From Bacteroidota bacterium (GTDB taxonomy: Bacteria > Bacteroidota > Bacteroidia > JADZBD01): a DNA stretch of 64,000 nucleotides. Both the position numbers and the translations under genes were made by a program. The stretch spans positions 87 to 64,086 of the forward strand of contig JBFLYZ010000015.1 of assembly GCA_040756415.1 (NCBI GenBank), given 5' to 3'. The notes beneath the pieces were generated by a model, which did not search any database, was not told the DNA's origin, and saw nothing but the letters and a program-made list of their open reading frames with translations. Shown here one piece after another: positions 1 through 62,629 of this stretch. Positions within the stretch are counted from its first letter, which is position 1. Every line of letters begins with the position of its first letter.

Positions 1-690
1 CATGCTGCTTCCGCGGCCCTGGGGGTTTACGCGCATGCTGCTCTCGCCCCTGCGGTTACGTCTGCCGTCACCCGAGGTGGAATAGCTGCCCGAACGCGAA
101 AGGTTCATTCCGCTGCCGCGCCTGCTACGCCTGCTATCGGTCTGGCCTCCGAGGTAACGGCCGCTGTAATCCTCATCATAATCGCTGTCATAGGCGCTTT
201 CATAGTCCTCGTTGCGGTCGTAGTCGGAAGATCCGTAAACATCGGTATCGTAATCCTCGTCCTCGTATTGCCCGCGCATGCCGCCTTCGAACTCGTCATC
301 ACCGTAACGGCTGTAGCCGCCTTCGCTGCCCTGGTAGCGGCTGTAGCTGCCACCGCCACCCTGGCCGTAGCGGCCGGTCCGTCTTCCTCCGCCATAGCTG
401 CCCACGCGAGAATATCCGCCTTCGTATTCCGGGCCTTCGCCATAGCCTGTGTAACCCTGTTCGCCTTCATACTCGTTGTATGCGCCCTGGCCGCCTTCAT
501 AGCCTCTCTGCCTGTTCTGGTAGCGGTTGTAGCTTCCGGGATAATCCTGGCTGCTCTGGCGGTTGTAGTCGCTGGTCTCGTAATCGTTGTAATCTTCGTA
601 GTTGTCGTAATCCGAACCGTAGCCGGAGTAGTTCCTGTTGCTGCCGTACTCATTGCGGCCGCGGCTTCTTCTTGGATTTCTGCTTCTCAT
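1..690 (-). CDS. Partial (runs off the window) Gly/Ser/Tyr/Arg/Asp-rich low-complexity protein, prion-like/hydrophilin
   Basis: My translation from ATG at 690: MRSRNPRRSRGRNEYGSNRNYSGYGSDYDNYEDY...GYEGGQGAYNEYEGEQGY...GSYGGGRRTGRYGQGGGGSYSRY..., open to position 1. It has an A-rich leader and the same style as the upstream gene. Absent from the ORF track because no stop lies in the window. Confidence 0.8.
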   Translation of the reverse strand, partial: MRSRNPRRSRGRNEYGSNRNYSGYGSDYDNYEDYNDYETSDYNRQSSQDYPGSYNRYQNRQRGYEGGQGAYNEYEGEQGYTGYGEGPEYEGGYSRVGSYGGGRRTGRYGQGGGGSYSRYQGSEGGYSRYGDDEFEGGMRGQYEDEDYDTDVYGSSDYDRNEDYESAYDSDYDEDYSGRYLGGQTDSRRSRRGSGMNLSRSGSYSTSGDGRRNRRGESSMRVNPQGRGSSM

Positions 691-740
691 AGGTGTTGTT
701 TTTAAGGGATTAGTTTTTAAGATTTTTTCATTGAAAAAGG

Positions 741-1415
741 CTAACGGCTGCTCCGGCTGCTGGATGCCCTTGAACGGCTTCTGCCCTGCGTGCGGCCCTG
801 CCCGGAGCGGGAACGCATGTTTATTCCCGAACGGGAGCGCGTACTGGTGCTGCCACCGGTGCGGTTACGCCTGCCCGTGGCAGTGCCCCGCGGTGAACTT
901 CTCCTGGATGAGGTGGAAGCGCCTCTGCGGCTGGCGCCTGCGCGCGATGCGCGGCCTCCCATCGAGGCGATGCGCCTTACCTCTGAGCGCGACATGGTAG
1001 CGAAACCCCTCCTGCCACCACGGGTGCCGCGGCCCCTGCGGCTTCCGGCAGAATAGCTGCGCTGGTACCTGCCTTCCCGGTCCTCATCACGTTCATATTC
1101 GCGATCGTAATTATCATAGCCGTCATAATCCTCATCGGATTCAGCGCTGTACCTTCTGCGACCGTAATCATCCTCCTCATGGTAGCGTCCGTATCCTTCT
1201 TCTTCCTCATCGTACCTTCCGTAACCGCCATAGCTGCCCGAATCCTCGTAATCGTAGTCGTCCTTACGCTCGTCCTGGTAGTCATCGTCATGGTAATACT
1301 CGTAGTCGTCATTGTAGCGTGAACGGCCTCTGCCGCCTTCGCGCTCGCTAAAGCGCCCGCTGGAATCTCTTCTCCTTCTCTGTGGATGAGATCCCCGTGA
1401 ACTGGAATGTCTCAT
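741..1415 (-). CDS. Disordered stress protein with KGG-type (GsiB/YciG/Con-10-like) motif
   Basis: RRGFATMSRSEVRRIASMGGRAS matches the KGG stress-repeat pattern. An acidic Tyr-rich block is followed by an Arg/Ser-rich block. Confidence 0.8.
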   Translation of the reverse strand: MRHSSSRGSHPQRRRRDSSGRFSEREGGRGRSRYNDDYEYYHDDDYQDERKDDYDYEDSGSYGGYGRYDEEEEGYGRYHEEDDYGRRRYSAESDEDYDGYDNYDREYERDEDREGRYQRSYSAGSRRGRGTRGGRRGFATMSRSEVRRIASMGGRASRAGASRRGASTSSRRSSPRGTATGRRNRTGGSTSTRSRSGINMRSRSGQGRTQGRSRSRASSSRSSR

Positions 1416-1458
1416 AGTGTTGTGGATTTATAGGTTTATAAATGAACGCAAACAAAAG

Positions 1459-1473
1459 GCAAACGCCATGCCA
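1459..1473 (-). promoter_or_regulatory. Putative sigma54 -24/-12 promoter
   Basis: TGGCATGGCGTTTGC = GG-N10-GC, ~45 bp upstream of the KGG gene start. Confidence 0.7.
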
Positions 1474-1741
1474 GCGGTAATTTAACAGCCATACCTGAAA
1501 AAACGGTTGGAAGTGGCGTGAATATAATTCCCCACAGTGCGGGAAGGCGGGGATTGTTTTTCCGGTTTGTTTTTCCATGCGGATTTTTTCCATGTGCTCG
1601 GCACGACCAGCCGGCCGGGCTGCAGGAGCGCTTCTATTGCAGCATCGGCCAGGTAAACGGAGAAAATAATGCCCGCCCGGTGTAATAAGCATCAATGACA
1701 ATGAGCACCGCGCAACTGAGCATGGCGTAAAGGAACAGGGT

Positions 1742-3160
1742 TCAGCTATTGCTGAGCATATTGAAGGCGCGCATTTTATTGTAAAGCGTCTTGCGATCGA
1801 TATTGAGCAGGTTGGCAGCGGCCGATTTATTGAAGTTCACCTTTCTCAGCACTTCCAGTATCTTCTCATATTCTGCATTCAGGGCGGCCGATTTCAGCTC
1901 GGGCAGGCGCCTGCCTTCCGGTTTTTCATCGTGCAGGTTGAATTTCGACTGAAAGACCATTTCCTGGGGCAGCGTCTCGAGCGTGACCAGGTTCTTGTTG
2001 CACAGCAGGGCGGCACGCTTGATGACGTTGTTCATCTCACGCAGGTTGCCGGGCCAATTATGTTCCAGGAATATCTTCTGTACCTCGGGCGAGAAACCTT
2101 CTATGGTCTTGCCCAGGTCGTTGTTGGCGCACTGCAGGAAAAAATCGGCAAAGATCAGGATGTCATCGCTTCGTTCGCGCAGGGCGGGAAGGTCGATGGA
2201 GAATTCATTGAAGCGGTGATACAGGTCTTCCCTGAACTCGCCTTTGCAGGTAGCCTCGTTGAGCTTCTTATTGGATGCAACCAGGATGCGGATGTCTACG
2301 TTTATTTCCTTCGATGAGCCCAGCCTGCGGATCTTTCTTTCCTGGATCACGCGCAGGAGCGATACCTGGATGTCGTAAGGCAGGTTGGTGATCTCATCCA
2401 GGAAGATGGTGCCGTGGTTGGCCAGCTCGAACTGCCCTACCTTCGATTGGAGGGCCCCGGTAAAGGCGCCTTTTTCATGACCGAACAGCTCGCTGCCCGC
2501 CAGCTCTTTGGTGAGCGCACCGCAATCGACCGCTATGAAGGGCATGTTTCGCCTGGGACTGGCCGCGTGTATGCTATAGGCGACCGATTCCTTTCCCGTC
2601 CCGCTCTCGCCATAAATGATAACGGAATAATTGGTAGAGGCAACCAGCTTGATCTGGCCTTGCAGCTTGCGGGCCTCCTTGCTCTTGCCTACAATGTAAA
2701 CGCGGTTGTTATTGGTCCTGCGTATCTGCTCCTCAGCAACAGCGAACTCGCGCATGGGATCGGCTGAGGGTTCATGTGAAGTACCTTCGGCCGACAGGGT
2801 TCTGTTCTGCAGCGTTTGTTCCACCAGCATCATGATCTCTTCAGGCAGCAGCGGCTTGGTAATATAGTCAATGGCGCCCATCTTGATCACATCTACGGCT
2901 ATTTTCACATTGGAATACCCCGTAATGATAATGACCGGCACGTTCGGCCGCACCTCTTTGATCTTCCGCAGCATTTTCTTTCCGTCCGTATCCGGGAGCC
3001 GGAAATCGCAGAAAATAATGTCGGGAGTATTTTCTTTGAGGTATTCGAGCGCCACCTTGCCTTTTGTAAAGAAGGTGGAGTCGTGCCCTTTTCGCTGGAA
3101 CAGCCTGTCGAGGAGCTGACAGATGTCCATATCATCATCAATAATAAGGAGTTTGGCCAT
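1742..3160 (-). CDS. NtrC-family sigma54-dependent response regulator (REC-AAA+-Fis HTH)
   Basis: Receiver domain (IIDDD...CDFRLPD), GESGTGKE Walker A, GAFTGA loop, FLDEI Walker B, WPGNLRE, C-terminal HTH. Confidence 0.97.
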   Translation of the reverse strand: MAKLLIIDDDMDICQLLDRLFQRKGHDSTFFTKGKVALEYLKENTPDIIFCDFRLPDTDGKKMLRKIKEVRPNVPVIIITGYSNVKIAVDVIKMGAIDYITKPLLPEEIMMLVEQTLQNRTLSAEGTSHEPSADPMREFAVAEEQIRRTNNNRVYIVGKSKEARKLQGQIKLVASTNYSVIIYGESGTGKESVAYSIHAASPRRNMPFIAVDCGALTKELAGSELFGHEKGAFTGALQSKVGQFELANHGTIFLDEITNLPYDIQVSLLRVIQERKIRRLGSSKEINVDIRILVASNKKLNEATCKGEFREDLYHRFNEFSIDLPALRERSDDILIFADFFLQCANNDLGKTIEGFSPEVQKIFLEHNWPGNLREMNNVIKRAALLCNKNLVTLETLPQEMVFQSKFNLHDEKPEGRRLPELKSAALNAEYEKILEVLRKVNFNKSAAANLLNIDRKTLYNKMRAFNMLSNS

Positions 3161-3351
3161 ACGTTTTCGTTCACTTAGAAGCGATCAGCCTGTTTTTGCC
3201 CGTTTTGGAGCGGCTGACCCGGATTCGGTGTAGCGAATTTATGCCAAGCCCCTGCCTCCCTGCCTTATATTCGGTAAGACCGAACTTTCAATAGCCCAAA
3301 AACCCTAATTCATGGGTTTGGTACGGGACCGCTAAAGTCCCGCGACAACTA

Positions 3352-5100
3352 TTACCGCGTTCTGTCCCTTTTTTTGCGCTTGGCCTGGGGAACCCTGGCC
3401 CCTTTTTCTCGCGCTTCCGATAAGCCGATGGCGATGGCTTGCTTACGGCTGGTCACTTTGCCTCCTTTGCCTCCTTTGCCGCTTCGCAGGGTACCTCTCT
3501 TTCTCCTGCGCATAGCGCTTTCTACCATTTCCTGGCTTTTTTTTGAATACTTTGCCATATCTGTTCCGGTTTTGGTCAGGTTATCGGTATCATCGTACTG
3601 CTTTAACGGGTTTACTGCCGGGCCGTTGACCACTTCTCCCATTGCGGTAAAGCGCGAGCCGTGGCAGGGGCAGTCCCATGACTTTTCGCTATCGTTCCAT
3701 TGCACTACGCAGCCCAGGTGCGTGCAGGCGGCCTCGAAGGCGTGCAAACGGTTGTGCTCATCCTTGTACACGGCTATCTTTTTCAATCCCTTGCGCATGA
3801 CTATGCCTTTCTCCGGCATCAGTTTATCCAGGCTTTCGCCCGGGGTGATCCAGTCGAAATACTGTGCGGTCATGTTCAGCATTTCCCGGATGCGCGTGCC
3901 TGCTGCCAGGGGAGAGTGCCTGTTTGGATCATATATCTTTTCCCACTCGTTATTTCTTCCCATGATCAGGTCGGTGATGAGCATGCCACCCAGCGTGCCA
4001 TGCGTTATCCCGTTGCCGGAATCACCGGTTATCACGTAAACGTTCTTTTGCTTGCGGGGGTTATGCCCTATGTAGGCCAGTCCATCGTCAGGTTCCATGA
4101 CCTGTCCCGACCATTTGTAACAGACCTCCCCGACAGGAAAGCGCTCACGGACCCATTCCTCGAGCCGGTTGAAACGTTTGTGTGGGTCGCCTTCCTGGCC
4201 GGTCTTATGATCTTCACCGCCCACGGTCAGGTAATCGTGCTGCCCGTTGCCGCGCGGGTCGATACGGATATAATGGTATGGGTGGCCCGTGTCCCAGTAT
4301 AAGGCATCCTCCACAACACCTTTTGCGATGGCAAAGCTGATCGCGTAGGTACGGTAGGCGGCCATGCGGGTATGCAGGGCAAATAGATTGTTCACGGGCG
4401 AATTGGTGGCAATTACCACCGACCCGCACTTGACATGATAGTTCTTTGTTTTCACCAGCACCTGCTCTTTCTCCTCTAGCGAGATCATGGGGCTGCGCTC
4501 GAATATTTTTCCTCCTTTCGATGTTATGGCGTTGGCCAGTCCGGCATAGTAGCGCACCGGCTGGAATTTTCCCTGGTTCCGCACGTGTATGCATTTTCCG
4601 GTATCGAAGCTGGAGATGGGCGCCCGCTGGAGCAATTCAGGTTCCTGCAGGCAGGTATCCTTCATAGCATTCAGTTCCCGTTCCAGCTCGTCATCTGGCC
4701 GGCCCTCCTGCGCGAAGAGGTATCCGCTCAGCCGTTTGAAGCCGCATTCTATGCCTTCGCTCCTGGCGGTACGCTCAATGAAGTCAATGGCCTCCGTATG
4801 ACTTTTCGCGGCAAGCGATGCGCCTTTTTTCCCGTGATACCGCGCCAGTTGATAGTAACGGTCATCCAGCACGTTCACGATATGGGCCGTGGTGTATGAG
4901 CTTTCTCCGCCTGCAACGGTGCCTTTTTCGAGCACGATCACCGACAGGCCTTCCTGCAGCAGGCAATAGGCGGTGGTCAGCCCTGCGATCCCTGCTCCCA
5001 CCACGCATACATCGCATTTCATGTCCATGCTAAGCGGGGAGTAGGAGGGAATGCTTACTCCTTCCTGCCACAGCGATTGAGTGACTTCTTTTTTTCTCAT
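3352..5100 (-). CDS. FAD-dependent oxidoreductase with Rieske [2Fe-2S] domain (YhfW-like), plus C-terminal DUF6496-like basic extension
   Basis: GAGIAG FAD-binding motif; CTHLGC...WDCPCHGSRF Rieske motif; tail MAKYSKKSQ...GTLRSGKGG..VTSRKQAIAIGLSEAR. Confidence 0.9.
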   Translation of the reverse strand: MRKKEVTQSLWQEGVSIPSYSPLSMDMKCDVCVVGAGIAGLTTAYCLLQEGLSVIVLEKGTVAGGESSYTTAHIVNVLDDRYYQLARYHGKKGASLAAKSHTEAIDFIERTARSEGIECGFKRLSGYLFAQEGRPDDELERELNAMKDTCLQEPELLQRAPISSFDTGKCIHVRNQGKFQPVRYYAGLANAITSKGGKIFERSPMISLEEKEQVLVKTKNYHVKCGSVVIATNSPVNNLFALHTRMAAYRTYAISFAIAKGVVEDALYWDTGHPYHYIRIDPRGNGQHDYLTVGGEDHKTGQEGDPHKRFNRLEEWVRERFPVGEVCYKWSGQVMEPDDGLAYIGHNPRKQKNVYVITGDSGNGITHGTLGGMLITDLIMGRNNEWEKIYDPNRHSPLAAGTRIREMLNMTAQYFDWITPGESLDKLMPEKGIVMRKGLKKIAVYKDEHNRLHAFEAACTHLGCVVQWNDSEKSWDCPCHGSRFTAMGEVVNGPAVNPLKQYDDTDNLTKTGTDMAKYSKKSQEMVESAMRRRKRGTLRSGKGGKGGKVTSRKQAIAIGLSEAREKGARVPQAKRKKRDRTR

Positions 5101-5125
5101 AGTAACGATAAATATTTTCCGGTAT

Positions 5126-5140
5126 GCTAATCATGTGCCA
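5126..5140 (-). promoter_or_regulatory. Putative sigma54 promoter
   Basis: TGGCACATGATTAGC = GG-N10-GC, 25 bp upstream of the oxidoreductase ATG. Confidence 0.65.
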
Positions 5141-5344
5141 GAATGTTCCGGGAATGGCTGCCCTGCGCCAGGTGTGTTACGGTCAGGTGCCGGCTTCTCA
5201 CTCTGTGCAATTAAATACACATCCGGCCGCGAATTTGATTCCAACAATCGTTTGAATGCTAATCATTTGACCGGCACGCGCAAAGCGGCATGATTGTTTA
5301 GTAGTTGATGCAAGCCCCAAACAATTAACCTAAAATCTTAAATC

Positions 5345-5518
5345 ATGAAAAAATCAGGATCAAAATCAAGAACAAGGGCCTCATCATCTTCGCGTAAGTC
5401 GAGGACCGGAGAGGGCAGCCGCACGAGCTCATCGCGTACTTCTGTGCGTTCTCGCTCCGGCTCAGGGACCCGCAGCCGCACGCGCAGGCTGGGTATCTTC
5501 AGCCGTAATGAGGATTAG
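5345..5518 (+). CDS. 57-aa Ser/Arg-rich basic small protein
   Basis: MKKSGSKSRTRASSSSRKSRTGEGSRTSSSRTSVRSRSGSGTRSRTRRLGIFSRNED*; A-rich leader (CTAAAATCTTAAATC-ATG); below the ORF-track length cutoff. Confidence 0.65.
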   Translation: MKKSGSKSRTRASSSSRKSRTGEGSRTSSSRTSVRSRSGSGTRSRTRRLGIFSRNED

Positions 5519-5554
5519 AGAATCAGGGAAAATTAACCACATAAAAACAGGCGC

Positions 5555-6034
5555 ATGAAAAACCAGAATAATAATAAAAAGAACCAGCCCGCTGAGAATA
5601 ACCAGGAGGGCACCGAGAACAAGCAGCCCACCGGCCCGTTCGGTCAAAAGAACAAAGGCCAGGGCGGAACTACAACCGAGGAAAACAGGAAAAGGACCCG
5701 TATTCAGAAGCAGGCGCCTTCGCTGAACCAGCCCCAGGGCAAGAACCAGCCCCAGGGCAAGCAGCAGAACAACCCGCAGGGCCAGGACCAGCAAAACCAA
5801 GACCAGCAGCAAAAGCAAACGCCCAACGCGCAGGACCGGAACCGCGAGGATGAGTCGGATGTAGACATACAGGACCAGAACTACGAAACCACTGAAAAGC
5901 AGGATGAGGATGCGAAGAATGAGGAAAACGATGAGATGGATTCGGAAAAGAAGAAGTACAATCCCGACAAGACGGACCCGGATCAGGACAATGATCCTAC
6001 TATAAACGAATCGAACGATAAGACAACCGGATAG
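5555..6034 (+). CDS. Gln/Asn/Asp/Glu-rich hydrophilic disordered protein
   Basis: 159 aa with almost no hydrophobic residues and NQPQGK repeats; followed by a terminator. Confidence 0.75.
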   Translation: MKNQNNNKKNQPAENNQEGTENKQPTGPFGQKNKGQGGTTTEENRKRTRIQKQAPSLNQPQGKNQPQGKQQNNPQGQDQQNQDQQQKQTPNAQDRNREDESDVDIQDQNYETTEKQDEDAKNEENDEMDSEKKKYNPDKTDPDQDNDPTINESNDKTTG

Positions 6035-6062
6035 GAATAAGCGATTATTCCTTTACGGATGT

Positions 6063-6105
6063 AAACGGAAAGCGCCCCCTCTGAACAAGGGGGTTTTCCG
6101 TTTTC
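6063..6105. terminator. Probable bidirectional intrinsic terminator
   Basis: AAACGGAAAGCGCCCCCT-loop-AGGGGGTTTTCCGTTTT hairpin between convergent genes. Confidence 0.65.
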
Positions 6106-6155
6106 AAAGACTCTGATCTTCACAGGCGCATTCACATGCGCAGCAAGCAGGCAGA

Positions 6156-7037
6156 TCAGGCGAGTTTCCCGGGGATCTCTTCCTTTTTGGGAATGATAAA
6201 GCGTCTTTCCTTGATCAGGTATCCGTCACCGCGGGCGAGTACATGCACCCGCAGGTTTTCCACGCACAGGGGTGTGTACTCTTCGGCATAGGTAATATTG
6301 GTGTGCCCCATTTTCTTGCCGTCAATGATGATGACCATGCCGGAGCCGCGGCACTCGGCCTTATTGCCTTTTGTGATAATGAGCGCGGTGTCCTCACCCA
6401 ACCCGATACCGGTGCAGGTAGGGTTCATGATGATGGCTTGTGCCAGGCGGCCGAACCGGCCCCGTTTCACGAAATGCGTGTCGATGATGCAATTGTCGAT
6501 CAGCCCGAAGCCCGATGTGATCTTCACATCGCCTTTGAGCATGGCCTCGTGGCTCTGGCCGGAATAGATCATGAGCTTCGACATAACCATGGCGCCTGCG
6601 CTGGTGCCCGCCACGATAAAATCCTTGTCTTCGCGGTACCTGCGCATGATGGTTGCGATAATATCGGTTCCGCCCAGGATGGTGGTGAGGCGGAACTGGT
6701 CGCCACCGGTGAAAAGCACCACGTGTGTTTTCTCTATGCGTTTGATATAAGCGGGATCGCTTGCCTCTTCTTTGCTTTGTATGCTGATGTGATGTATGTT
6801 CTGGAAACCGATCTTCCTGAAAGCGTTGATATACGCTCGGCTCATTTCTTCGGGCTCAGCGGTGGCGGTAGTGATGATCTCGATGCGATGCTCTTTGCTT
6901 TTTTCAGGAGGTAGCAGCTCCCCGAGGATCTCGTAATGCTTGAAGTTCTTATTCTTTCCCTTAATATCGGGCACCCTGTAGCCTTCGCCCCAGTCTTCCG
7001 CCCCGCCAATGATAAGCAGTCTGCCCTTTGGTCTCAT
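6156..7037 (-). CDS. cphB: Cyanophycinase
   Basis: IIGGAED, FTGGDQ, GTSAGA catalytic Ser, IDTHF..RGRFGRL, GLGEDT; directly downstream of cphA. Confidence 0.95.
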   Translation of the reverse strand: MRPKGRLLIIGGAEDWGEGYRVPDIKGKNKNFKHYEILGELLPPEKSKEHRIEIITTATAEPEEMSRAYINAFRKIGFQNIHHISIQSKEEASDPAYIKRIEKTHVVLFTGGDQFRLTTILGGTDIIATIMRRYREDKDFIVAGTSAGAMVMSKLMIYSGQSHEAMLKGDVKITSGFGLIDNCIIDTHFVKRGRFGRLAQAIIMNPTCTGIGLGEDTALIITKGNKAECRGSGMVIIIDGKKMGHTNITYAEEYTPLCVENLRVHVLARGDGYLIKERRFIIPKKEEIPGKLA

Positions 7038-7046
7038 ACGCGTGTT

Positions 7047-9671
7047 TTAAACCTCTATCATTTCGGCTTCCTCTTTCGCTTTGGCCCTGGATACAAAATC
7101 GATGGCTTCGCGCACAGCTTCGGTGAGCGTAACGATAATTGCGCCCGGCTGCGCATGGATCATGGCATCTCTCAGGGCGTCTTTCTCCCGGGGAACGATC
7201 CTTACGGGTGTCTCGGGGTAGATGCTGCGTATGCCCTTCAGCAGCAGTTCGGATATGTTCTCGGCCGTACGTCCCCTCAGGTCCTCATCATGGCGGATTA
7301 TGATCTCATCGAAGATCTGCGCTGCGAGCGATCCCACCTGCTGTATGTCCTCATCGCGCCTGTCGCCCGGGGCGGTAATGATACCCACTTTGGGCCGCTG
7401 CATCTTATCCAGGAACTTTTTGAGCTCCGCGAAGCCGCCCGGGTTGTGAGCATAGTCGATCATGACATCAAAATTCCTGAAGCTGAAGATGTTCATGCGG
7501 CCGGGGGTCATTTCGGGCGAGGGCACAAAGGAGAAAAGCGCTTTGCGTATGTCCTCAATCCTGAAATTGCGGATGATGCCCACCAGGACGGCCGGCAGGA
7601 TGTTCCGTATCATGCATTCGGATGCTCCGGAGAAGGAAAGGGGCACATCGGCAATACGGCAGATGCGGATCTTCCACTCGCCCTTGCAAATGGTGATCTG
7701 GTCTTTTTCGATCACCGCGGCCAGTCCGCCCCTGGCGCAATGGCGTTTTACCCGCTCGTTCCTCGGATCGAGGGCAAAAAGGGCGATGTTGCATTCCAGG
7801 TCATCGCCCATCTCGTACACCAGGTCGTCTTCGGCATTCAGGATGCTGTAGCCATCGCGGAAGGTGCTGTCGGCCACCACTTTTTTCACGCGGGCCATGT
7901 CTTCGAGCGTATTGATGTCGTCCAGCCCCAGGTGGTCGGCCGTTACGTTGGTAATGATGCTGATATCGCAATGATCAAAGCCCAGGCCGGAGCGGATGAT
8001 GCCACCGCGCGCGCATTCGAGCACGGCAAAATCTACCAGCGGTTCGGTCAGCACGGTTTCGGTGCTTTGTTCGCCCGTGCAATCCCCGTAGCATATGGCT
8101 TTCCCGTCAATGTAAATGCCATCGGTGGTGGTAAAGCCCACGGTATGTCCAGCGGTTTTGGCTATGTGGGCGGTAAGCCTCGTAGTGGTGGTTTTGCCGT
8201 TGGTTCCGGTTACGGCCACCAGTGGGATGCGCGATTCGCTGCCGCGCGGGTAAAGCATTTCCACGATGGGTTCAGCCACGTTGCGCGGTAATCCCTTGGC
8301 GGGCGAGAGGTGCATGCGCAGCCCGGGGCAGGCGTTGACTTCGATGACGGCTCCGTTATCTGCCTGTATGGGTTGCCGGATATCTTTGGCCACGATATCA
8401 ATACCGCAAATATCGAGGTTCACCAGCCGTGCTATACGTTCGGCCATGAAAACATTATCGGGGTGAACGATATCGGTTACATCGGTAGAGGTGCCGCCTG
8501 TGCTCAGGTTGGCCGTATCTTTGAGAAAAAGGATCTCGCCAATGGGCAGAACGGTATCCAGCGTGAAGCCTCTTTCGGCCAGTATTCCTGCGGTAACGTG
8601 ATCTACTTTTATTTTCGTAAGCACCTTCTCATGGCCATCGCCCCTGCGCGGGTCATTGTTGGCCTGCTCGATCAGGTCTTTGATGGCGGAGAACCCGTCA
8701 CCGATCACCATGGCGGGTGTGCGCTGTGCCGCTGACACCAGTTTGTAATTTACCACCAGCAAGCGGTAATCGGTACCCGAGATGAATTGCTCCACGATCG
8801 CGTCCTTTGAAAAGGTCAGCGCGGTGGCCAGTGCGGCCAGCGCCTGCTCCTTATTCTTGATGTTCGTGGTAATGCCTTTGCCCTGGTTGCCGTCAATGGG
8901 TTTAATGACCAGGGGAAAGCTGAGCGCCTTAAGAGCCGGTATCAGCTCTTCTTCAGTGGAAACGACCCGGCCGGCAGGCACGGGAATATAAGCGCGTTCG
9001 AGCAGGCGTTTGGTCTCTTCTTTATCGCAGGCCGTATCCACGCCCAGCGCGCTGGTAGAGCAGGTCATGGAAGCCTGTATGCGTTTCTGGCGTTTGCCCT
9101 GTCCCAATACGATGAGCGAATCGCGGTTCATGCGCCTGACGGGAATGCTGCGGTTGCGGGCCTCTTCGATGATAGCCTGCGTGCTCACCCCCAGGGCGCG
9201 CCTGCTCTTAATGGTCTTGAGCTCCTGTATGTCGGCCGAGATGTCGTAGGGCTGGTTGGCTACCAGGTGTTCAGCGATGCGTATGGCGGCATCGATGGCG
9301 TAATAACCGGCATCCACGATCTCGTAAGAGAAGGCGATATAATATACCCCTTTCTCGTCAGCCGAGCGGGTGCGTCCGAAACCGCATTCCATTCCCGCCA
9401 GCCATTGCAGCTCCAGGGTAATGTGTTCGATCACATGCGCCATCCAGGTGCCTTCGCGCACGCGCTCGAAAAAGCCGCCCTCGTGTTTTTCGGAGCAGCG
9501 GTGGCTGAACAATGAGGGCATCAGGGCTTCGAGCCGTTGGGGAAATCCATTGATCTTATTGGTTGGAAAATTTTCGAGCTTTTTGATATCGATCTTTACT
9601 ACGATCAGGTTGTGCCAGTAGCTGGACCAGTAGTTAGGTCCCCGCATGGTCTTAATATCAAGGATCTTCAT
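7047..9671 (-). CDS. cphA: Cyanophycin synthetase (CphA1)
   Basis: MRGPNYWS N-terminus; HRCS...HVIEH N-domain; ATP-grasp domain (KPIDGNQGKG, EVNACPGLRMH); Mur-ligase domain (VTGTNGKTTT, ECARGG, DYAHNP). Confidence 0.97.
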   Translation of the reverse strand: MKILDIKTMRGPNYWSSYWHNLIVVKIDIKKLENFPTNKINGFPQRLEALMPSLFSHRCSEKHEGGFFERVREGTWMAHVIEHITLELQWLAGMECGFGRTRSADEKGVYYIAFSYEIVDAGYYAIDAAIRIAEHLVANQPYDISADIQELKTIKSRRALGVSTQAIIEEARNRSIPVRRMNRDSLIVLGQGKRQKRIQASMTCSTSALGVDTACDKEETKRLLERAYIPVPAGRVVSTEEELIPALKALSFPLVIKPIDGNQGKGITTNIKNKEQALAALATALTFSKDAIVEQFISGTDYRLLVVNYKLVSAAQRTPAMVIGDGFSAIKDLIEQANNDPRRGDGHEKVLTKIKVDHVTAGILAERGFTLDTVLPIGEILFLKDTANLSTGGTSTDVTDIVHPDNVFMAERIARLVNLDICGIDIVAKDIRQPIQADNGAVIEVNACPGLRMHLSPAKGLPRNVAEPIVEMLYPRGSESRIPLVAVTGTNGKTTTTRLTAHIAKTAGHTVGFTTTDGIYIDGKAICYGDCTGEQSTETVLTEPLVDFAVLECARGGIIRSGLGFDHCDISIITNVTADHLGLDDINTLEDMARVKKVVADSTFRDGYSILNAEDDLVYEMGDDLECNIALFALDPRNERVKRHCARGGLAAVIEKDQITICKGEWKIRICRIADVPLSFSGASECMIRNILPAVLVGIIRNFRIEDIRKALFSFVPSPEMTPGRMNIFSFRNFDVMIDYAHNPGGFAELKKFLDKMQRPKVGIITAPGDRRDEDIQQVGSLAAQIFDEIIIRHDEDLRGRTAENISELLLKGIRSIYPETPVRIVPREKDALRDAMIHAQPGAIIVTLTEAVREAIDFVSRAKAKEEAEMIEV

Positions 9672-9878
9672 ACAATTTCACTTTACGTTTTAGGGGGCCT
9701 TATCACCTGCATACAGGCACAAAAGGCTAAAAAATTATGCCAGTCTCCGGTGCGATTGTAATGTCAACAGCAGGCTATTCATGTCATGGGAAAAAAATTC
9801 TACACCATGAGGAAAAGCGGTACGTAGAGACATACGAAAGGCAACCCGGGTTTCAGGCGGGGCTGCCGCAAGACGGGT

Positions 9879-10448
9879 TTATACTTCGGCCTCCGCCTCT
9901 TCGTTCACCCTGCTTTCAGCGATAGCGGTCAGCTTCTTGTCGGCCTCTTTTTCTTCTTCGAGGGTTTCCTGCAGCAGCTTCACCACCTGTGCCTTGCCAA
10001 GTATGCGTGCCAGCTCGGCCAATCCGCCATAGGTGGCGATCTCGTAATGCTCTACTTTCTGCGCGGACATGATGATGGCGGTATCGCGGGTAAAGCTTCC
10101 CTTTTCGGTATCCGATATAACGTGCTGTCCTTCCCTGGTTAGCCCGTCCATGCCATCGCACTTCCGGGTCTTGGGTTTTTCTCCCAGCAGGTTGAACGCC
10201 TCTTCCAGGCGCATGACCTGTTTTTCGGTCTCGGTCTGGTGATGGGTCAGCGCCTCGCGCAGCTCCAGCGTAGTGGCCGATTTGCTTAGTTTGGGCAATG
10301 TCTTTACGAGCTGCTTCTCGGCCCAATAGATGTCCTTGAGCTGCTCGAGGAAGAAGTCGTACAACGCGCTATCCTCTTCTTTTACCGATGAGGTCTTGCT
10401 CTTCTTTGCGTTCCGGGAAGAATGGTTGCTGTTTCCTTTTCTTTTCAT
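9879..10448 (-). CDS. Ferritin-like DUF892 (YciE/YciF) stress protein
   Basis: LKDIYWAEKQL, AQKVEHYEIATYG, ETLEEEKEADKKLT motifs. Confidence 0.93.
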   Translation of the reverse strand: MKRKGNSNHSSRNAKKSKTSSVKEEDSALYDFFLEQLKDIYWAEKQLVKTLPKLSKSATTLELREALTHHQTETEKQVMRLEEAFNLLGEKPKTRKCDGMDGLTREGQHVISDTEKGSFTRDTAIIMSAQKVEHYEIATYGGLAELARILGKAQVVKLLQETLEEEKEADKKLTAIAESRVNEEAEAEV

Positions 10449-10478
10449 AAAGTTGTTTTTTTAGAGTGTAAATGACAT

Positions 10479-10493
10479 GCCAAATTGATGCCA
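10479..10493 (-). promoter_or_regulatory. Putative sigma54 promoter
   Basis: TGGCATCAATTTGGC = GG-N10-GC, 30 bp upstream of the DUF892 ATG. Confidence 0.6.
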
Positions 10494-10638
10494 GGACATT
10501 TTGTGCTGTAGGCGAACGACAGGCTTTCCATGCGATGAAGAAAATGTTGCTTAAGCTGTAGAATAAATTTCCGCTGCGCTTTTACCAGGCCCGTATCATA
10601 AAGAATTACCCATAAGTGATCAGGATTCCCGCGCGTAT

Positions 10639-11025
10639 TCAGTCCACCTGTCCCTCGCGTAGCTCCCGTGTCAAGATGGTGAAGCCTACTACTTCGATCT
10701 TCCGGTGAATGGCCGTGATCAGGCTATTGGCCCAGAAGATGCTGCCGTTCTTCCTCAGGCGCCTACCCGTGTGGCTGGCGCGTCCTTCGCGGGTAGCCAG
10801 CTCCAGCAGGTGTTCGGGTAAGCCTGCCAGGCGGTCCTGCGGCAGGTAAAAGATGCGGAAGTTCTGACCGATGATCTCCGACTCGCTGTAGCCCTGTATC
10901 TTTTCCACGCCTTTGTTCCAGGTAAGGATCTTGCCGTCTATATCGAGAGATACTATTGCGTAATCCTGGATCTCCACGATCATCTGGCGGTGAAGAAAAT
11001 CCGATCTGATTAGCTTCTCTTCCAT
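10639..11025 (-). CDS. Stand-alone PAS domain protein
   Basis: DYAIVSLDIDGKILTWNKG..IQGYSESEIIGQNF..FY; GRRLRKNGSIFWA. Confidence 0.85.
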   Translation of the reverse strand: MEEKLIRSDFLHRQMIVEIQDYAIVSLDIDGKILTWNKGVEKIQGYSESEIIGQNFRIFYLPQDRLAGLPEHLLELATREGRASHTGRRLRKNGSIFWANSLITAIHRKIEVVGFTILTRELREGQVD

Positions 11026-11099
11026 GTTCCCACAGAATGTTAATGATCTGCGCTGTTTCCTCGCTTCAATGGAAAAAGTAGTATGGCAAATATATTCTG

Positions 11100-11542
11100 G
11101 GGGTTCGGCTTCTTTTGCCCAAAACCTTGAAACCCGTACTAAGGAACTGGAAACTAAAATGGATAAGTTGGTAAGTGCTTATCTGGACGGGGAAATAGAA
11201 AAAGGAGCATACTTAAAGAAGAAAGAGGAACTGATGAAAATTAAGGCTGACCTGCATAGCCAAAAGAATGGTTTTGGGCAAAAGCCTTCTTGGATCGAAC
11301 CCCTGCGCGATTGGGTTAAAACCGCTCACCACGCTGGGAAACTTGCTTCCTGTGACAGCGATTTTAATGAAATAAGATCGCTGGCGGAAAAAATTGGAAC
11401 GAACCGCCTTCTGAGGGATAAAAAAATCTTATTTGATTTCGTCCCGCCTTATCATAACATACCTACAAACAAGGCATTGCAAAGCAAAAGCCCCGCTGGT
11501 GCGGGGCTGGGTGGAGAAGTGTCCAAAAAGGAAACTCTCGCT
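11100..11542 (+). pseudogene. C-terminal remnant of a site-specific (large serine-type) recombinase
   Basis: Coiled coil ETKMDKLVSAYLDGEIEKGAYLKKKEEL...WIEPLRDWVKTA resembles large serine recombinase C-termini. No catalytic domain, AT-rich, and the frame reads into the antisense ssrA 3' end. Left boundary approximate. Confidence 0.6.
11486..11508 (-). terminator. Intrinsic terminator downstream of ssrA
   Basis: AGCCCCGC-ACCA-GCGGGGCT followed by TTT on the minus strand, 35 nt past the tmRNA CCA. Confidence 0.6.
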
Positions 11543-11909
11543 TGGTGGAGTCGGAGGGAGTTGAACCCTCGTCCAAACAAAGAAACGATAAGCTTTCTAC
11601 ATGCTTAGCTGACCTTTGGTTTTCGACAAGCTTTGGCAGGCCATCGGGCCATCAGCTTGCTTAGCTTCTTAAATTTCGCCTGAAGCCGAAGCGTCATCAG
11701 GCTATCTCCTCGTTTGCTATGCTTCACCGGGACGCAGAAGAGAAGAGCTTCCCGGGAAACAATGGCACTTATTCGCTGAGCGAATTAAGCAGCCATGGCG
11801 TAGTTTGTCTCGCCATTTAGAGTTGTGAGAATTAGGATTAACGTGTCATATTCACAACACACGGCATGCTTACCTACCGGGTCATTTGCTGTCAAAACCT
11901 GTCGACCCC
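11543..11909 (-). ncRNA. ssrA: tmRNA
   Basis: 5' GGGGTCGACAGGTTTTGAC; 3' GAGGGTTCAACTCCCTCCGACTCCACCA; G3:U acceptor wobble; tag ORF GETNYAMAA* at 11814-11785. Confidence 0.97.
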
Positions 11910-16006: not shown

Positions 16007-16125
16007 AGGTGTCAGGTGGCAAGTATCAGGTATTAGGTATCAGGTATTAGGTATTAGGTATCAGGTATCAGGTATTAGGTATCAGGTATTAGGTATCAGG
16101 TATTAGGTATCAGGTATCAGGTATC
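16007..16125 (+). repeat. Heptamer tandem array (AGGTATY x14 plus 3 degenerate units)
   Basis: Read directly; the last unit overlaps the stop codon of the four-helix bundle gene. Confidence 0.97.
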
Positions 16126-16483
16126 AGGAGGGCTGCCGGATTGAATCCTTGAGCTTGCTGATCATTTTTTGAATTTTAGTCACCTTCTCTATCAGGTTTT
16201 TTAACTCTTCTTTTGAAATGTAGTTTAATTCATTCGCTAAAATAAGCTGCGTTTCAATTTCGAACGCGGAACCAAGTGATACATTAAGGAACTGACAAAA
16301 CTGTTTTTGTGAATCACGCGAACACCCCTCAGCAATATTACTTGGAATAGAAACAGCAGCCCGGTTCAATTGGGCTACCAATCCATACTTTTCCTCAACA
16401 GGAAATTTTTTCGTCAACACAAAGATCTCCTTGGCCAAACTCATCGACTCCTGCCAGATTTTTAACTCCTTAAAATTATGCAT
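16124..16483 (-). CDS. Four-helix bundle protein (23S rRNA IVS protein family)
   Basis: FKELKIWQ, FPVEEKYGL..QLNRAAVSIPSNIAEG, GSAFEIETQL; AT-rich. Confidence 0.95.
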   Translation of the reverse strand: MHNFKELKIWQESMSLAKEIFVLTKKFPVEEKYGLVAQLNRAAVSIPSNIAEGCSRDSQKQFCQFLNVSLGSAFEIETQLILANELNYISKEELKNLIEKVTKIQKMISKLKDSIRQPS

Positions 16484-18932: not shown

Positions 18933-19583
18933 TTAAGCTTCGTTGACAAAATCCACAAGATCCAGCTTGATCAGTTCCCAGTGTTTGTTTCGCAGGCAGA
19001 TCGGATCAAAATCGTCTTCTGCTGATGAAAAATCAACCAGTTTTTCCTTTACCTGGTCTCTATCATGAGTGTATTCATACCGCCTGTGATGCAGATCCAG
19101 CATAGTTGCCAGCGAGTAATTCTCCATTAGTTCATGAATATCCCAAAAGTCTTTTTTGCGGCCGCCTCCGGAGATCACTTGGAGCTTCATGGCAATAATA
19201 TCTCCTGCGTCAGCCATTCGGATACCATCTTCTTCCACAGATGGCAAAATGAATGGCTCTGTATAAAAGAGGTCAAGTTTAATGGAATTGTCTTCGCTTT
19301 CTCCAACAACATATGCTCTTCCCAAACCAACTTCCTGGTAGTCGCTTGTGTTCACGTAAGGAAAAACAGATCGCAAGAAATTGTCTATCGCATCAGAGTC
19401 GACTGAACCATAATCAGAGCCTGTAAAAAGGTCAATGTCTACGGACATACGATGGCCTCGCTGTAAACTGAGGGCAGTGCCACCCACTAATCTGAAATCT
19501 TTGAATAGTTCAGACTCCATCAGGGTTTCAAGTGAAGATCGTAATAGAGGACTTACCGTTCCGTAGTGCAATTTCTTACTCAT
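18933..19583 (-). CDS. Nucleotidyltransferase, AbiEii/AbiGii toxin family
   Basis: FRLVGGTALSLQRGHRMSVDIDLF; AMKL...GRKKDFWDI. Confidence 0.9.
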   Translation of the reverse strand: MSKKLHYGTVSPLLRSSLETLMESELFKDFRLVGGTALSLQRGHRMSVDIDLFTGSDYGSVDSDAIDNFLRSVFPYVNTSDYQEVGLGRAYVVGESEDNSIKLDLFYTEPFILPSVEEDGIRMADAGDIIAMKLQVISGGGRKKDFWDIHELMENYSLATMLDLHHRRYEYTHDRDQVKEKLVDFSSAEDDFDPICLRNKHWELIKLDLVDFVNEA

Positions 19584-20037
19584 GCTTTTTCAGGAAGTAA
19601 TCGATGGTTTCCTGACCGTAAAAACGGGTGATCTCATTCTTTTCCGTCTCATTTCCCCGTTCAAAGACACGCTTGATAACTGCCCTTTTTTGTTTTTCCC
19701 AATCGATCTTTTCTATATGCGTATCCCAAAATAGTATCCGCCTTAATTTGGAAAGATCAGGACGCGCTGAATGCTTACGTTTGATCTGGGCAATATCATA
19801 GAACACCTGCAGTTGCATTAAGAAACCCTCTTCCATTCCCAGCGCTTTTTCTATTTTAAGCGCCAGCGCTGTATTCATTCTGCGTTTGCCTTTTGTAATA
19901 GTAGCCAGTGTTTGAGGAAATTCACCAAGGGATATGGCAAAGCGACCTTTCGCTATCTTTTTTTTCTTCAACTCTCTTTCCACCAGCAATCCCGGGTGTA
20001 TGCCTTTTATGTATGACAATTGTAATTTCATATACAA
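19576..20037 (-). CDS. HigA-like XRE HTH fused to DUF6922-like domain; putative antitoxin/regulator
   Basis: IHPG..., KGKRRMNTALALKIEKALG, LFWDT..IDWEKQKRAVIKRVFERG; overlaps the toxin start by 8 bp. Confidence 0.85.
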   Translation of the reverse strand: MYMKLQLSYIKGIHPGLLVERELKKKKIAKGRFAISLGEFPQTLATITKGKRRMNTALALKIEKALGMEEGFLMQLQVFYDIAQIKRKHSARPDLSKLRRILFWDTHIEKIDWEKQKRAVIKRVFERGNETEKNEITRFYGQETIDYFLKKHE

Positions 20038-22854: not shown

Positions 22855-23211
22855 ATGTACGAACGGCAGATAAACAATATAAAATCAGTAAAAGAATTTC
22901 GTAGAAAGCTTCGAAGAAGAATGACCTTATCTGAGCGTACTATATGGAAGTGTCTTAGAAATAAAGAGCTTGGCGCCAAATTCAGAAGTCAGTTCAGTGT
23001 TGGGCAGTACGTACTGGACTTTTATTGTCCTGTGAAGAAGCTTGCAATCGAAATCGATGGGGAGATACATAACGATCCTGAGATGATAAAAAGAGATAAG
23101 AAACGAACAGGTTTTCTCAATAAGCATGGAATAAAGGTTTTGCGTTTTAGCAATGATATGGTGCTATCCGATATAGGTAAGGTATTGGAGGAGATAAAAA
23201 GGGAATTGTGA
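22855..23211 (+). CDS. DUF559 / Vsr-like endonuclease domain protein
   Basis: LRRRMTLSE..W..LR, KFRSQ, YVLDFYC, IEIDGEIH, D..R..FL...GIKVLRFSN; AT-rich. Confidence 0.92.
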   Translation: MYERQINNIKSVKEFRRKLRRRMTLSERTIWKCLRNKELGAKFRSQFSVGQYVLDFYCPVKKLAIEIDGEIHNDPEMIKRDKKRTGFLNKHGIKVLRFSNDMVLSDIGKVLEEIKREL

Positions 23212-27392: not shown

Positions 27393-28232
27393 ATGAAAAC
27401 AGTGATCGTAACTGGCGGTAACAGCGGCATAGGCAAGGCCACTGCCACCGAGCTGGCCCGCAAAGGCTACCGCGTGATCATCCACGGGCGCGATGCGCAA
27501 AAGACCATGATCGCCCTTCAGGATATTATCAAACAATCGGGCAACAGCAGGGTAGAGGCCGTAACGGGGGATATGTCGTCTGTCGCGGGCATGAAAAAGG
27601 TGGCCGAAAGCTTCAGGCAGAAGACCGATGTGGTGGACATACTCGTCCTATCCACAGGCATCATACTCTCCAGGCGTGTAGAAACGGCTGACGGGCTGGA
27701 GGGCGCCTTTGCCGCGCAGTACCTTTCGCGCTTCGCCACGGTGCAGTGGCTCATGCCCATGCTCAGGAAATCGCCTTTCGCGCGCATCGTAATGGTGGGG
27801 GCGCCCACCATGAAAAAGGCCGCCATACATTTCGATGATCTCTCCCTGCGCAATAACTTCAGCATGATGCGCAGCATGGGCCAGTGCATGCTGGCCAGCC
27901 ATATGTTCGTTCAGGAATTCGCGAAGCGGCATCCGAACGATAACGTGGTGATGAACATCTTCCACGTGGGTATCGCCAAAACGGGAGTGGTGAGGGAAGT
28001 GAATGTTGTTTTCCGCGGGCTGGTCAAGCTCTTTGGGGCAAGCCCGGAGAAGGCCTGCGCCAACGCAGTGTACCTGGCCGATAATGATGAGGTGAAGTTC
28101 AGCGGCTACTTCCTGCCCAAGCCCGGTAAGCCGCATGTAAAGGAAAAGATACAGTACGACCATGCCATTAGCGAGCGTCTGTGGAACACCAGCATGGAGC
28201 TGATAGAGCCGGTTAAAGAAATGGCTGTTTAG
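27393..28232 (+). CDS. Short-chain dehydrogenase/reductase (retinol dehydrogenase-like, atypical)
   Basis: VTGGNSGIG Rossmann motif; canonical YxxxK not evident. Confidence 0.85.
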   Translation: MKTVIVTGGNSGIGKATATELARKGYRVIIHGRDAQKTMIALQDIIKQSGNSRVEAVTGDMSSVAGMKKVAESFRQKTDVVDILVLSTGIILSRRVETADGLEGAFAAQYLSRFATVQWLMPMLRKSPFARIVMVGAPTMKKAAIHFDDLSLRNNFSMMRSMGQCMLASHMFVQEFAKRHPNDNVVMNIFHVGIAKTGVVREVNVVFRGLVKLFGASPEKACANAVYLADNDEVKFSGYFLPKPGKPHVKEKIQYDHAISERLWNTSMELIEPVKEMAV

Positions 28233-44466: not shown

Positions 44467-44873
44467 TTTCTTGGAAGTTTGGCAAATTCAGGAGTAACGA
44501 GAGAAACCATTGTGTCTTTTATATTCAAACTGCAGAAATTGAATAAAAGGCCTTTAGGTTTTCCGGCCAGGGTCAAATAGGAAAGTAAAATAGCCGTGTG
44601 AACGGGATGTAGAACTTCCACGGCCTTATTCCCTACAATCACCAGATCATTAACTATAAGATCGAGCTTGAGCGGGTTTCCAAGTGTTTTCCCTTTATAC
44701 ATAATAGATACTGCGAGTTGCCTTTTGGGAAAAAGTTCAGCCTCCTTTAGCTCATCAAACAAACATTCTTCATAAACTGATTCAAGTAGTCCTGGTCCAA
44801 GTTGCTTATGAACCTCAATAGCACAACCAATTATCTTGAATGAAAGGCTGTTGATGTATTCCTGAGTAATCAT
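44463..44873 (-). CDS. GxxExxY protein (PD-(D/E)XK nuclease fold), possibly inactivated
   Basis: IGCAIEVHKQLGPGLLESVYE; ExK site reads GNK; alternative start at 44900 lies inside the repeat. Confidence 0.9.
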   Translation of the reverse strand: MITQEYINSLSFKIIGCAIEVHKQLGPGLLESVYEECLFDELKEAELFPKRQLAVSIMYKGKTLGNPLKLDLIVNDLVIVGNKAVEVLHPVHTAILLSYLTLAGKPKGLLFNFCSLNIKDTMVSLVTPEFAKLPRK

Positions 44874-44915
44874 TTCTCTGTGAACCTCCGTGTTCTCCAT
44901 GATCTCTATGGTAAA
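44873..44915. repeat. Upstream arm of the inverted repeat around GxxExxY #1
   Basis: Reverse complement TTTACCATAGAGATCATGGAGAACACGGAGGTTCACAGAGAAA aligns with 44402-44443. Confidence 0.85.
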
Positions 44916-62251: not shown

Positions 62252-62629
62252 ATGACTGAAAACGAGTTATCGAATAGAATCATAGGCCTCGCTATTGAAG
62301 TTCACAATGTTTTAGGCCCCGGCCTGCTCGAAAGCGCTTATAAAGAATGCCTTTATTATAAGATCCTGCAAGCCGGCATTCCCGTTGAGAAGGAAAAACC
62401 TATGCCGCTTATATTTGAAAAAGTAAGGCTGGACTGCGGATACCGGATCGATCTCGTGGTGAACGGTAAGCTTGTGATAGAGGTTAAAAGTGTAGAAGCG
62501 CTCAATGATATTTATTTGGCCCAGACCCTAACTTATCTAAAGCTTGGCGATTATAAATTGGGCTTGCTTATTAATTTCAATGTATTGAGATTAAAAGACG
62601 GCATCAAAAGGGTAGCAAATGGGTTGTGA
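62252..62629 (+). CDS. GxxExxY protein (PD-(D/E)XK nuclease fold)
   Basis: AIEVHNVLGPGLLESAYKECL, YRIDLVV, IEVKSV, AQTLTYLKL, GLLINFN. Confidence 0.95.
   Translation: MTENELSNRIIGLAIEVHNVLGPGLLESAYKECLYYKILQAGIPVEKEKPMPLIFEKVRLDCGYRIDLVVNGKLVIEVKSVEALNDIYLAQTLTYLKLGDYKLGLLINFNVLRLKDGIKRVANGL

Follow-up and report, generated by a model that had tools for sequence, protein, structure and literature searches.

Sigma-54 stress modules in which the activator is encoded next to its targets include PspF–psp, RtcR–rtcBA, NorR–norVW and ZraSR. Under RpoS (sigma-S), the yciGFE locus combines a KGG hydrophilin with DUF892 (YciE/YciF-type) proteins in one stress locus. To our knowledge, neither RpoS nor SigB is present in Bacteroidota, whose general stress response is ill defined. 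Here we describe a stretch of 64,000 nucleotides from a Bacteroidota bacterium (GenBank assembly GCA_040756415.1, contig JBFLYZ010000015.1, positions 87 to 64,086 of the forward strand; the window), and within it the first 11,542 nucleotides (the block), in which an NtrC-family activator is encoded among genes for hydrophilic disordered proteins, a flavin/Rieske oxidoreductase, a DUF892 ferritin-like protein and the cyanophycin enzymes CphA and CphB. We favour, with confidence slightly above even, a reading in which the block is a native chromosomal cluster and the activator most likely drives sigma-54 transcription of at least three adjacent units, encoding the KGG protein, the oxidoreductase with its C-terminal DUF6496 tail, and the DUF892 protein.

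By analogy, the locus would most resemble the PspF, RtcR and NorR type of module in its wiring and the sigma-S yciGFE locus in its cargo. With PspF, RtcR, NorR and ZraSR it shares an AAA+ activator bearing the GAFTGA motif, encoded beside presumed −24/−12 promoters, and a stress-type cargo. It differs in the nature of that cargo, which comprises hydrophilins, a DUF892 protein and a flavin/Rieske enzyme as against membrane, RNA-repair, nitric oxide and zinc functions, and in its input, which is a receiver domain and therefore implies a two-component kinase. The presence of a KGG hydrophilin and a DUF892 protein in a single locus is common to the block and yciGFE, but sigma-54-type sites take the place of RpoS, the genes form separate units spread over 10 kb, and the KGG protein is four times longer, with a single borderline motif.

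Within the phylum, the nearest described parallel is the SM4 (sigma-54) regulon of Flavobacterium psychrophilum, whose promoters drive groES, dnaK, grpE, lon, htpG and clpB (PMC9723704, in excerpt). The excerpts of that study and of a position-specific scoring matrix survey (PMC12316311) describe −24/−12 promoters on stress-induced genes, as proposed here, with high osmotic pressure among the inducing conditions. The F. psychrophilum cargo is different, consisting of chaperones, proteases and gliding genes; cphB there is sigma-A-dependent, ftnA has a sigma-A promoter, and the excerpts name no KGG or DUF892 target. The main text of PMC12316311, as excerpted, contains no mention of cyanophycin, ferritin, Dps or ‘general stress’, and a search of open-access text turned up no report that connects sigma-54 with KGG, DUF892 or cyanophycin genes. 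As sigma-54 control of chaperones and other proteostasis genes in Bacteroidota is already published, the novelty of this locus lies in its cargo, including the DUF6496 fusion. An initial sequence-only reading of the window had further proposed that sigma-54 is used here in place of SigB or RpoS; that substitution is a supposition that our analysis does not support.

The activator (1742..3160, minus strand) was recognised in the sequence-only reading from its GAFTGA motif, and this identification holds. Its Pfam domains are Response_reg, Sigma54_activat (214 bits), AAA_lid_14 and HTH_8, that is, a receiver, an AAA+ module and a Fis-type helix-turn-helix, and both GAFTGA and the receiver residues DDD...D...T...K are visible in the translation. 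It aligns over its full length with an Aquifex NtrC-family structure (4l4u, E=1.7e-88). No NCBIfam equivalog model scores above its cut-off, the PspF, RtcR, NorR and ZraR models all matching below theirs. Relatives at 55–74% identity form 119 clusters from Bacteroidota metagenome bins, a distribution that would fit vertical inheritance.

An exact pattern search of the window recovers the three GG-N10-GC sites of the sequence-only reading, and these are the only matches to TGGCAYNNNNNTNGC in the 64 kb, all on the minus strand. P1 (TGGCATGGCGTTTGC, 1459..1473) is located 58 nucleotides (nt) before the start codon of the KGG gene at 1415, P2 (TGGCACATGATTAGC, 5126..5140) 40 nt before that of the oxidoreductase gene at 5100, and P3 (TGGCATCAATTTGGC, 10479..10493) 45 nt before that of the DUF892 gene at 10448. 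Scored against the classical consensus TGGCAC-N5-TTGCW, which was fixed beforehand and applied with GG and GC required, P1, P2 and P3 agree at 9, 10 and 9 of 11 positions. The window holds 15 matches of at least 9/11, and P1–P3 are the only ones inside upstream zones, defined as at most 150 nt before a start codon on the coding strand (3/15, P=0.02); for all three to fall within the upstream zones of the block, P=3e-4. Against the window background the sites therefore stand out by placement, upstream of starts and on the coding strand, and not by raw number. A phylum-tuned consensus, TGGCAY-N5-TTGH, taken from F. psychrophilum promoters with mapped transcription start sites (PMC9723704, supplement in excerpt), gives 19 matches in the window, with P1–P3 again the sole ones in upstream zones (3/19, P=0.035); of eight F. 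psychrophilum promoters in the same excerpt, five have TTGA or CTGA as their −12 element, one has TTGC and two have TTGT. On shuffling of the individual 150-nt regions, 39, 46 and 22 of 5,000 shuffles reached the score of the resident site. The −24 element TGGCAY is present in five of the eight usable upstream regions of the block versus 1/33 elsewhere (Fisher P=4e-4).

The sigma-A −7 box TAnnTTTG, as given for F. psychrophilum in the excerpt of PMC9723704, is absent, both exactly and with one mismatch, upstream of the KGG, activator, oxidoreductase, short open reading frame (ORF) and DUF892 genes. An exact box precedes the PAS gene of the block and likewise 7 of 33 genes outside it. Window-wide sigma-70 and terminator scans remained at shuffle level. 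Overlapping P2 is an 11-mer, ATGATTAGCAT, that occurs twice, 132 nt apart (5124–5134 and 5256–5266, minus strand; 0.03 expected). Its first copy constitutes the spacer and −12 element of P2, and its second follows CCGGTCAA and resembles a degenerate duplicate of P2 with GG-N11-GC; alternatively, the repeat could be an operator.

Comparing the three upstream regions yielded a candidate activator-binding dyad, GGAAW-N3-ATTC (GGAAWNNNATTC). It is represented by GGAATTATATTC (1520..1531, minus strand) upstream of P1, by the palindromic GGAATCAAATTC (5231..5242) in the divergent promoter region containing P2, and by GGAAATTTATTC (10561..10572, minus strand) upstream of P3, with centres 54, 98 and 75 nt from the respective −24 GG. 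The window contains five exact copies, all in the block and four of them intergenic, where 1.44 are expected; five copies were reached in 0 of 100 shuffles. The pattern was defined from three of these five; of the two extra copies, one is within the oxidoreductase gene and one upstream of cphA, the latter being the fourth intergenic one (GGAAAAAAATTC, 9789..9800, plus strand) and lying about 54 nt from the cphA TGGCAT. Measured by hand, the four dyad-to-GG distances differ by about 0, 2 and 4 helical turns, a spacing in roughly whole turns that is suggestive only. Copies of the strict palindrome GAATNNNATTC are about as frequent in the window as expected by chance. Directly upstream of the P1 dyad, GGAAAAAM is repeated three times, at intervals of 13 and 15 nt (1556–1591, minus strand).

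In the mechanism that we propose, a histidine kinase encoded outside the block would phosphorylate the receiver domain, presumably in response to a water, osmotic or stationary-phase signal. The activator would then oligomerise at an upstream site, for which the dyad 54–98 nt upstream of the −24 GG is the candidate, and its GAFTGA loop would open the closed complex of the sigma-54 holoenzyme. Firing from P1 would produce the KGG hydrophilin, probably together with the downstream disordered protein encoded at 1–690; P2 would serve the flavin/Rieske oxidoreductase with its DUF6496 tail; and P3 the DUF892 ferritin-like protein. The sigma-54 stress regulon envisaged in the sequence-only reading is plausible in part, being supported by the activator, the placed sites, the lack of sigma-A boxes, the dyad and the stress-type cargo; its genomic island and its coupling to cyanophycin, both discussed below, are not supported.

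The product expected from P1 is a KGG-motif protein of 224 amino acids (aa) (741..1415, minus strand; R 23%, S 17%, G 14%) assigned to PF10685. A homologue search returned one weak match, also PF10685. The Atlas cluster nearest to the window protein (score 0.85) is a Bacteroidota one named ‘Stress-induced protein’, 92% of whose members have KGG; this is a lead only, and the Atlas model is disordered (predicted local distance difference test (pLDDT) 0.45). Following it is the disordered protein IDP0 (1..690, minus strand; G 20%, Y 15%, S 14%, R 13%), of which the N-terminal 230 aa are inside the window and the C terminus is beyond its left edge. This is the only open frame there with genome-typical GC content at third codon positions (GC3, 0.70); its grand average of hydropathy (GRAVY) is −1.87, and in composition it weakly resembles the KGG protein (E=0.012). 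The assembly break at the left edge of the window probably falls inside this repetitive disordered-protein gene.

On the plus strand between P2 and the cyanophycin genes are a Ser/Arg-rich ORF of 57 aa (5345..5518) and the disordered protein IDP3 (5555..6034, 159 aa; Q 18%, N 15%, K 11%, D 11%), with a GC3 of 0.71 and an Atlas model of pLDDT 0.41, for which the Atlas search gave nothing useful (best score 0.75). The hydrophilin threshold is 6% glycine. All four low-complexity ORFs of the block qualify, with 6–20% glycine and GRAVY values of −1.58 to −2.44. Much glycine and strong hydrophilicity are the two properties in the definition as excerpted from PMC5437024. The sequence-only reading had counted four low-complexity proteins; the four ORFs do exist, and in three of them the annotated frame has genome-typical GC3, but the coding status of the 57-aa ORF is doubtful, as its GC by codon position is 0.36/0.76/0.57 and its annotated frame lacks genome-typical GC3.

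The oxidoreductase (3352..5100, minus strand) consists, according to Pfam, of an FAD-binding DAO domain, a Rieske 2Fe-2S domain and a C-terminal DUF6496 tail (97 bits) encoded by 3352–3585 and comprising the last 58–78 residues. YhfW of Bacillus subtilis, an FAD-linked oxidoreductase whose substrate is not known, likewise carries a Rieske 2Fe-2S domain at its C terminus (PMC7317962, in excerpt), a likeness by described architecture and not by direct sequence comparison, to which the window protein adds the DUF6496 tail. Among its best 150 representatives (37–51% identity), none was aligned beyond query residue 533; four have a second matching segment at an unspecified position. A plasmid search returned 766 records, all below 60% identity; the tail is covered in none of the 25 listed, and the homologues among the matches listed span only residues 3–504. 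The term ‘DUF6496’ was not met among the matches listed in open-access literature. As judged from domain content, the fusion may link the functions of two families that are both uncharacterised. Weak hairpins are found downstream of the gene.

The third predicted target is the DUF892 (YciE/YciF-type ferritin-like) protein (9879..10448, minus strand; PF05974, 181 bits). Searched against plasmids, it matched 430 records, with two Bacteroidota among the 40 listed. ORF, Pfam and NCBIfam analyses also confirm the earlier gene list in full, coordinates included: the activator, the DUF892 protein, the flavin/Rieske oxidoreductase, cphA–cphB and the PAS protein (10639..11025, minus strand), which is 128 aa long and, by Pfam and NCBIfam, PAS-only without a kinase domain; its gene is the one with the sigma-A-type −7 box.

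A genome scan with the activator, using exact 8-residue patterns, identified five further loci with activators of 42–51% identity. In tblastn searches of these loci with 13 window proteins, only the activator (5/5) and weak PAS matches (L004) were found, and these are therefore paralogues. In one, from a Saprospiraceae bin (L001, 923–3917), rpoN is directly upstream of an activator 46% identical to that of the window. Paralogous activators adjoin Dps or ferritin genes (L002, L005, L006), superoxide dismutase (SOD) and DUF2383 genes (L005), PRC-barrel and MscS genes (L006) and a DUF1328 gene (L002), and thus occupy a recurring stress-type neighbourhood. In the Chitinophagaceae bin L005, a 9/10 match to the phylum-tuned consensus is located 72 nt upstream of the DUF2383 gene and adjoins kinase and receiver genes together with an activator gene, whose product shares 51% identity with the window activator. 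The locus on a Chryseobacterium plasmid (L008) holds a single match, which scores 10/10 and precedes by 48 nt a gene for a four-helix-bundle protein of the PA2169 family; this gene clusters with two DUF892 genes and a catalase gene. The best plasmid match of the activator itself is 47.9% identical and in a different context.

Several observations tell against the three-unit reading, beginning with its status as a prediction from a single locus. The number of TGGCAYNNNNNTNGC matches is at chance level (3 versus 1.75 expected, with at least three in 27 of 100 shuffles); P2 and P3 each lack one of the two Ts preceding GC; and the placement statistics, the dyad pattern and the motif and zone choices are post hoc, having been framed once the sites had been seen. 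The TGGCAY before the activator gene has GG-N9-GC and that before cphA has GG-N12-GC, two bases too far, so neither shows the required spacing. One exact dyad copy is intragenic, in the oxidoreductase gene, and the dyad with one mismatch is not enriched (29 versus 33 expected). There is no rpoN in the 64-kb window and no histidine kinase in the block, which has just the PAS-only ORF, the nearest kinase gene being at 28229–29533; the earlier description of the regulon as self-contained is not supported, as the block lacks a kinase for the receiver domain. The PF10685 hit of the KGG protein is borderline (21.2 bits versus a cut-off of 20.4), and a stress role of the cargo is suggested by family names and composition. 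In the paralogue loci and two Bacteroidota plasmids, no classical site of at least 9/11 precedes Dps, ferritin, SOD or DUF892 genes.

One alternative is that the motif matches are coincidental, that the neighbouring genes use other promoters and that the activator has its real targets elsewhere in the genome. The chance-level count, the definitions chosen after the fact and the lack of canonical sites before comparable genes in most related loci speak for it, as does the frequency of TGGCAY in the upstream zones of eight other loci, which is not enriched (7/120, P=0.11). It accounts less well for three independent regions each having less than a 1% chance of holding such a site, for all three sites being on the right strand at the right distance and within 8 kb of the activator gene, and for the lack of sigma-A boxes in the P1–P3 regions. 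We regard coincidence as unlikely, though it is the strongest of the alternatives.

A second alternative gives the activator a role in nitrogen reserves, in which it would mainly control cyanophycin turnover and an amino-acid-type oxidase, the Arg/Asn/Gln-rich proteins being incidental or nitrogen-rich. NtrC is classically a nitrogen regulator, and the centre of the block is taken up by cyanophycinase cphB (6156..7037, minus strand; TIGR02069, 222 bits versus a cut-off of 126.6) and cyanophycin synthetase cphA (7047..9671, minus strand; TIGR02068, 1206 bits versus 850), adjacent with a 9-nt gap and both above their equivalog cut-offs. The DAO domain of the oxidoreductase weakly resembles amino-acid and amine oxidases (NCBIfam, all far below cut-offs), and cphA has upstream both the fourth intergenic dyad copy and the −24-like TGGCAT (TGGCATAATTTTTTAGC, 9726..9742, minus strand). 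From GG to GC, however, the latter has a non-canonical 12 bases, and as no −12 element stands at the right spacing, control of cphAB by sigma-54 is unsupported; properly spaced sites are found before the KGG, oxidoreductase and DUF892 genes and not before cphA. A hairpin after the DUF892 stop codon also speaks against this alternative, though it is no stronger than in shuffled sequence. In F. psychrophilum, the cphB promoter is of sigma-A type and no motif is assigned to the start of cphA (PMC9723704, in excerpt), and the pairing of cphA with a cyanophycinase gene is general anyway: it holds in 81% of genomes with both genes, cyanophycinase is present in 86/86 CphA1-encoding Bacteroidota genomes, and the pairing is thus the rule in the phylum.

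The nitrogen-reserve role is accordingly doubtful, and the coupling of the stress regulon to Arg/Asp polymer storage proposed in the sequence-only reading is not supported, given the mis-spaced TGGCAT and the sigma-A promoter of F. psychrophilum cphB. In the three-unit reading, cphA–cphB and the plus-strand disordered-protein genes are neighbours that may or may not be regulated with the three units. As the hairpin behind the DUF892 gene does not exceed shuffled sequence in strength, cphAB may be co-transcribed from P3. A strong hairpin foldable on both strands (6062..6104; z-scores −3.35 and −3.19) separates the convergent IDP3 and cphB. The Bacteroidota-type sigma-54 consensus is matched at 10/10 positions by TGGCATTTACATTGA (8107–8121, minus strand), which lies inside cphA, on its coding strand and about 1.08 kb upstream of cphB, and may be due to chance.

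At the right border of the block is the remnant of a large serine recombinase gene (11099..11566, plus strand; the last 156 codons, inside a 194-aa ORF at 11024–11608), abutting the tmRNA gene (11543..11909, minus strand; tag GETNYAMAA), whose 3′ end at 11543 faces the block. Both had been noticed in the sequence-only reading and are substantiated by domain-bearing homologues and by tmRNA and Rfam searches, the tmRNA being the sole Rfam match in the window. The 194-aa ORF has 39 longer homologues at 40–74% identity, 35 of them with Resolvase, Recombinase and zinc-ribbon domains. The remnant aligns without stops to residues 357–512 of a 515-aa homologue at 67% identity, and its low GC (0.45; GC3 0.46) is therefore original and not a product of decay. 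The final 24 nt of the remnant are shared with the tmRNA 3′ end, so that an integrase-type gene is located immediately beside the tmRNA gene. The remnant has zero matches in plasmid and phage collections.

The tails of the recombinase homologues look like tRNA or tmRNA 3′ ends translated in reverse complement: a strict W-S-G-x-x-D/E-S/L-N-P occurs in 18/39 and W[SW]x near the end in 31/39, and six homologues continue as ...WS(Q/H/N) followed by (L/I)LN(E/N/A)(A/V)RT(F/Y)(F/Y), perhaps the unintegrated form. From these sequences, the family seems dedicated to the ends of t(m)RNA genes, with crossover near the acceptor stem. The Islander database reportedly collects elements integrated at tRNA and tmRNA genes. 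Such elements with large serine recombinases, including tycheposons, are known (bioRxiv 10.1101/2020.12.28.424599, in excerpt); the present case shares with them a site-specific recombinase gene directly at the tmRNA 3′ end, but differs in that only the last third of that gene is left and the adjoining 11 kb do not look foreign.

The remnant is the only part of the block with a foreign appearance. GC content is 0.541 in the block and 0.532 in the remainder of the window, and the GC3 of block genes, 0.63–0.73, is like that of the housekeeping genes purL (0.71), a fadB-like gene (0.68) and an acyl-CoA dehydrogenase gene (0.70); the tetranucleotide correlations of the block with the rest (0.865 and 0.897) are within the range of other chunks (0.66–0.94). 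No copy of the ssrA 3′ end is present in 1–11542, and the left border of the block is outside both the window and the assembly, the source contig measuring 64,154 nt and thus hardly exceeding the window. Serine recombinases need no long repeat. A foreign element was thus once present at ssrA and has mostly been deleted, the DNA adjoining the remnant looks native, and the remnant is the scar of an element separate from the block. That the whole of 1–11542 is a genomic island integrated at ssrA and bringing a self-contained sigma-54 stress regulon with it, as first proposed, is improbable: the abutting remnant, the precedent of large serine recombinase elements and a left end beyond the assembly favour it, but the native composition, the originally low GC confined to the remnant, the lack of an ssrA 3′-end copy in 1–11542 and the wide conservation of the activator, with its 119 relative clusters, all count against it.

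Elsewhere in the window, several proteins have type IX secretion domains, which together with the tmRNA tag mark the DNA as Bacteroidota. In a low-GC patch (0.42–0.46) between a thiolase gene and the fadB-like gene, an AbiEii toxin-type gene is paired with a DUF6922 gene (18933–20037), and small genes for 23S-IVS-protein, DUF559 and PDDEXK_3 proteins are dispersed among housekeeping genes (16124–16483, 22855–23211, 44463–44900 and 62252–62629).

If the locus works as we read it, sigma-54 control would reach hydrophilins and ferritin-like proteins through one activator, and such proteins are tied to survival of drying or starvation in other phyla. The result would be a regulon compact enough to test, with a single activator, three promoters and a candidate binding site. 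The fusion, for its part, would provide a clue tying DUF6496 proteins to YhfW-type oxidoreductases. A broader and more tentative picture is that, in an uncultured Bacteroidota clade devoid of RpoS and SigB, a dedicated sigma-54 activator of the two-component kind governs a programme for desiccation or dormancy comprising Tyr/Gly/Ser/Arg-rich and Asn/Gln-rich hydrophilins, a YciE/F-type ferritin-like protein and a YhfW-type flavin/Rieske enzyme with a captured DUF6496 stress-protein tail, with cyanophycin turnover joined to it through weaker sites. Were this programme real, the locus would be a sigma-54-based counterpart of the sigma-S yciGFE module and, together with the sites upstream of the DUF2383 gene in the Chitinophagaceae bin and the PA2169-family gene on the Chryseobacterium plasmid, would widen the stress role of sigma-54 in the phylum from chaperones to the general stress response.

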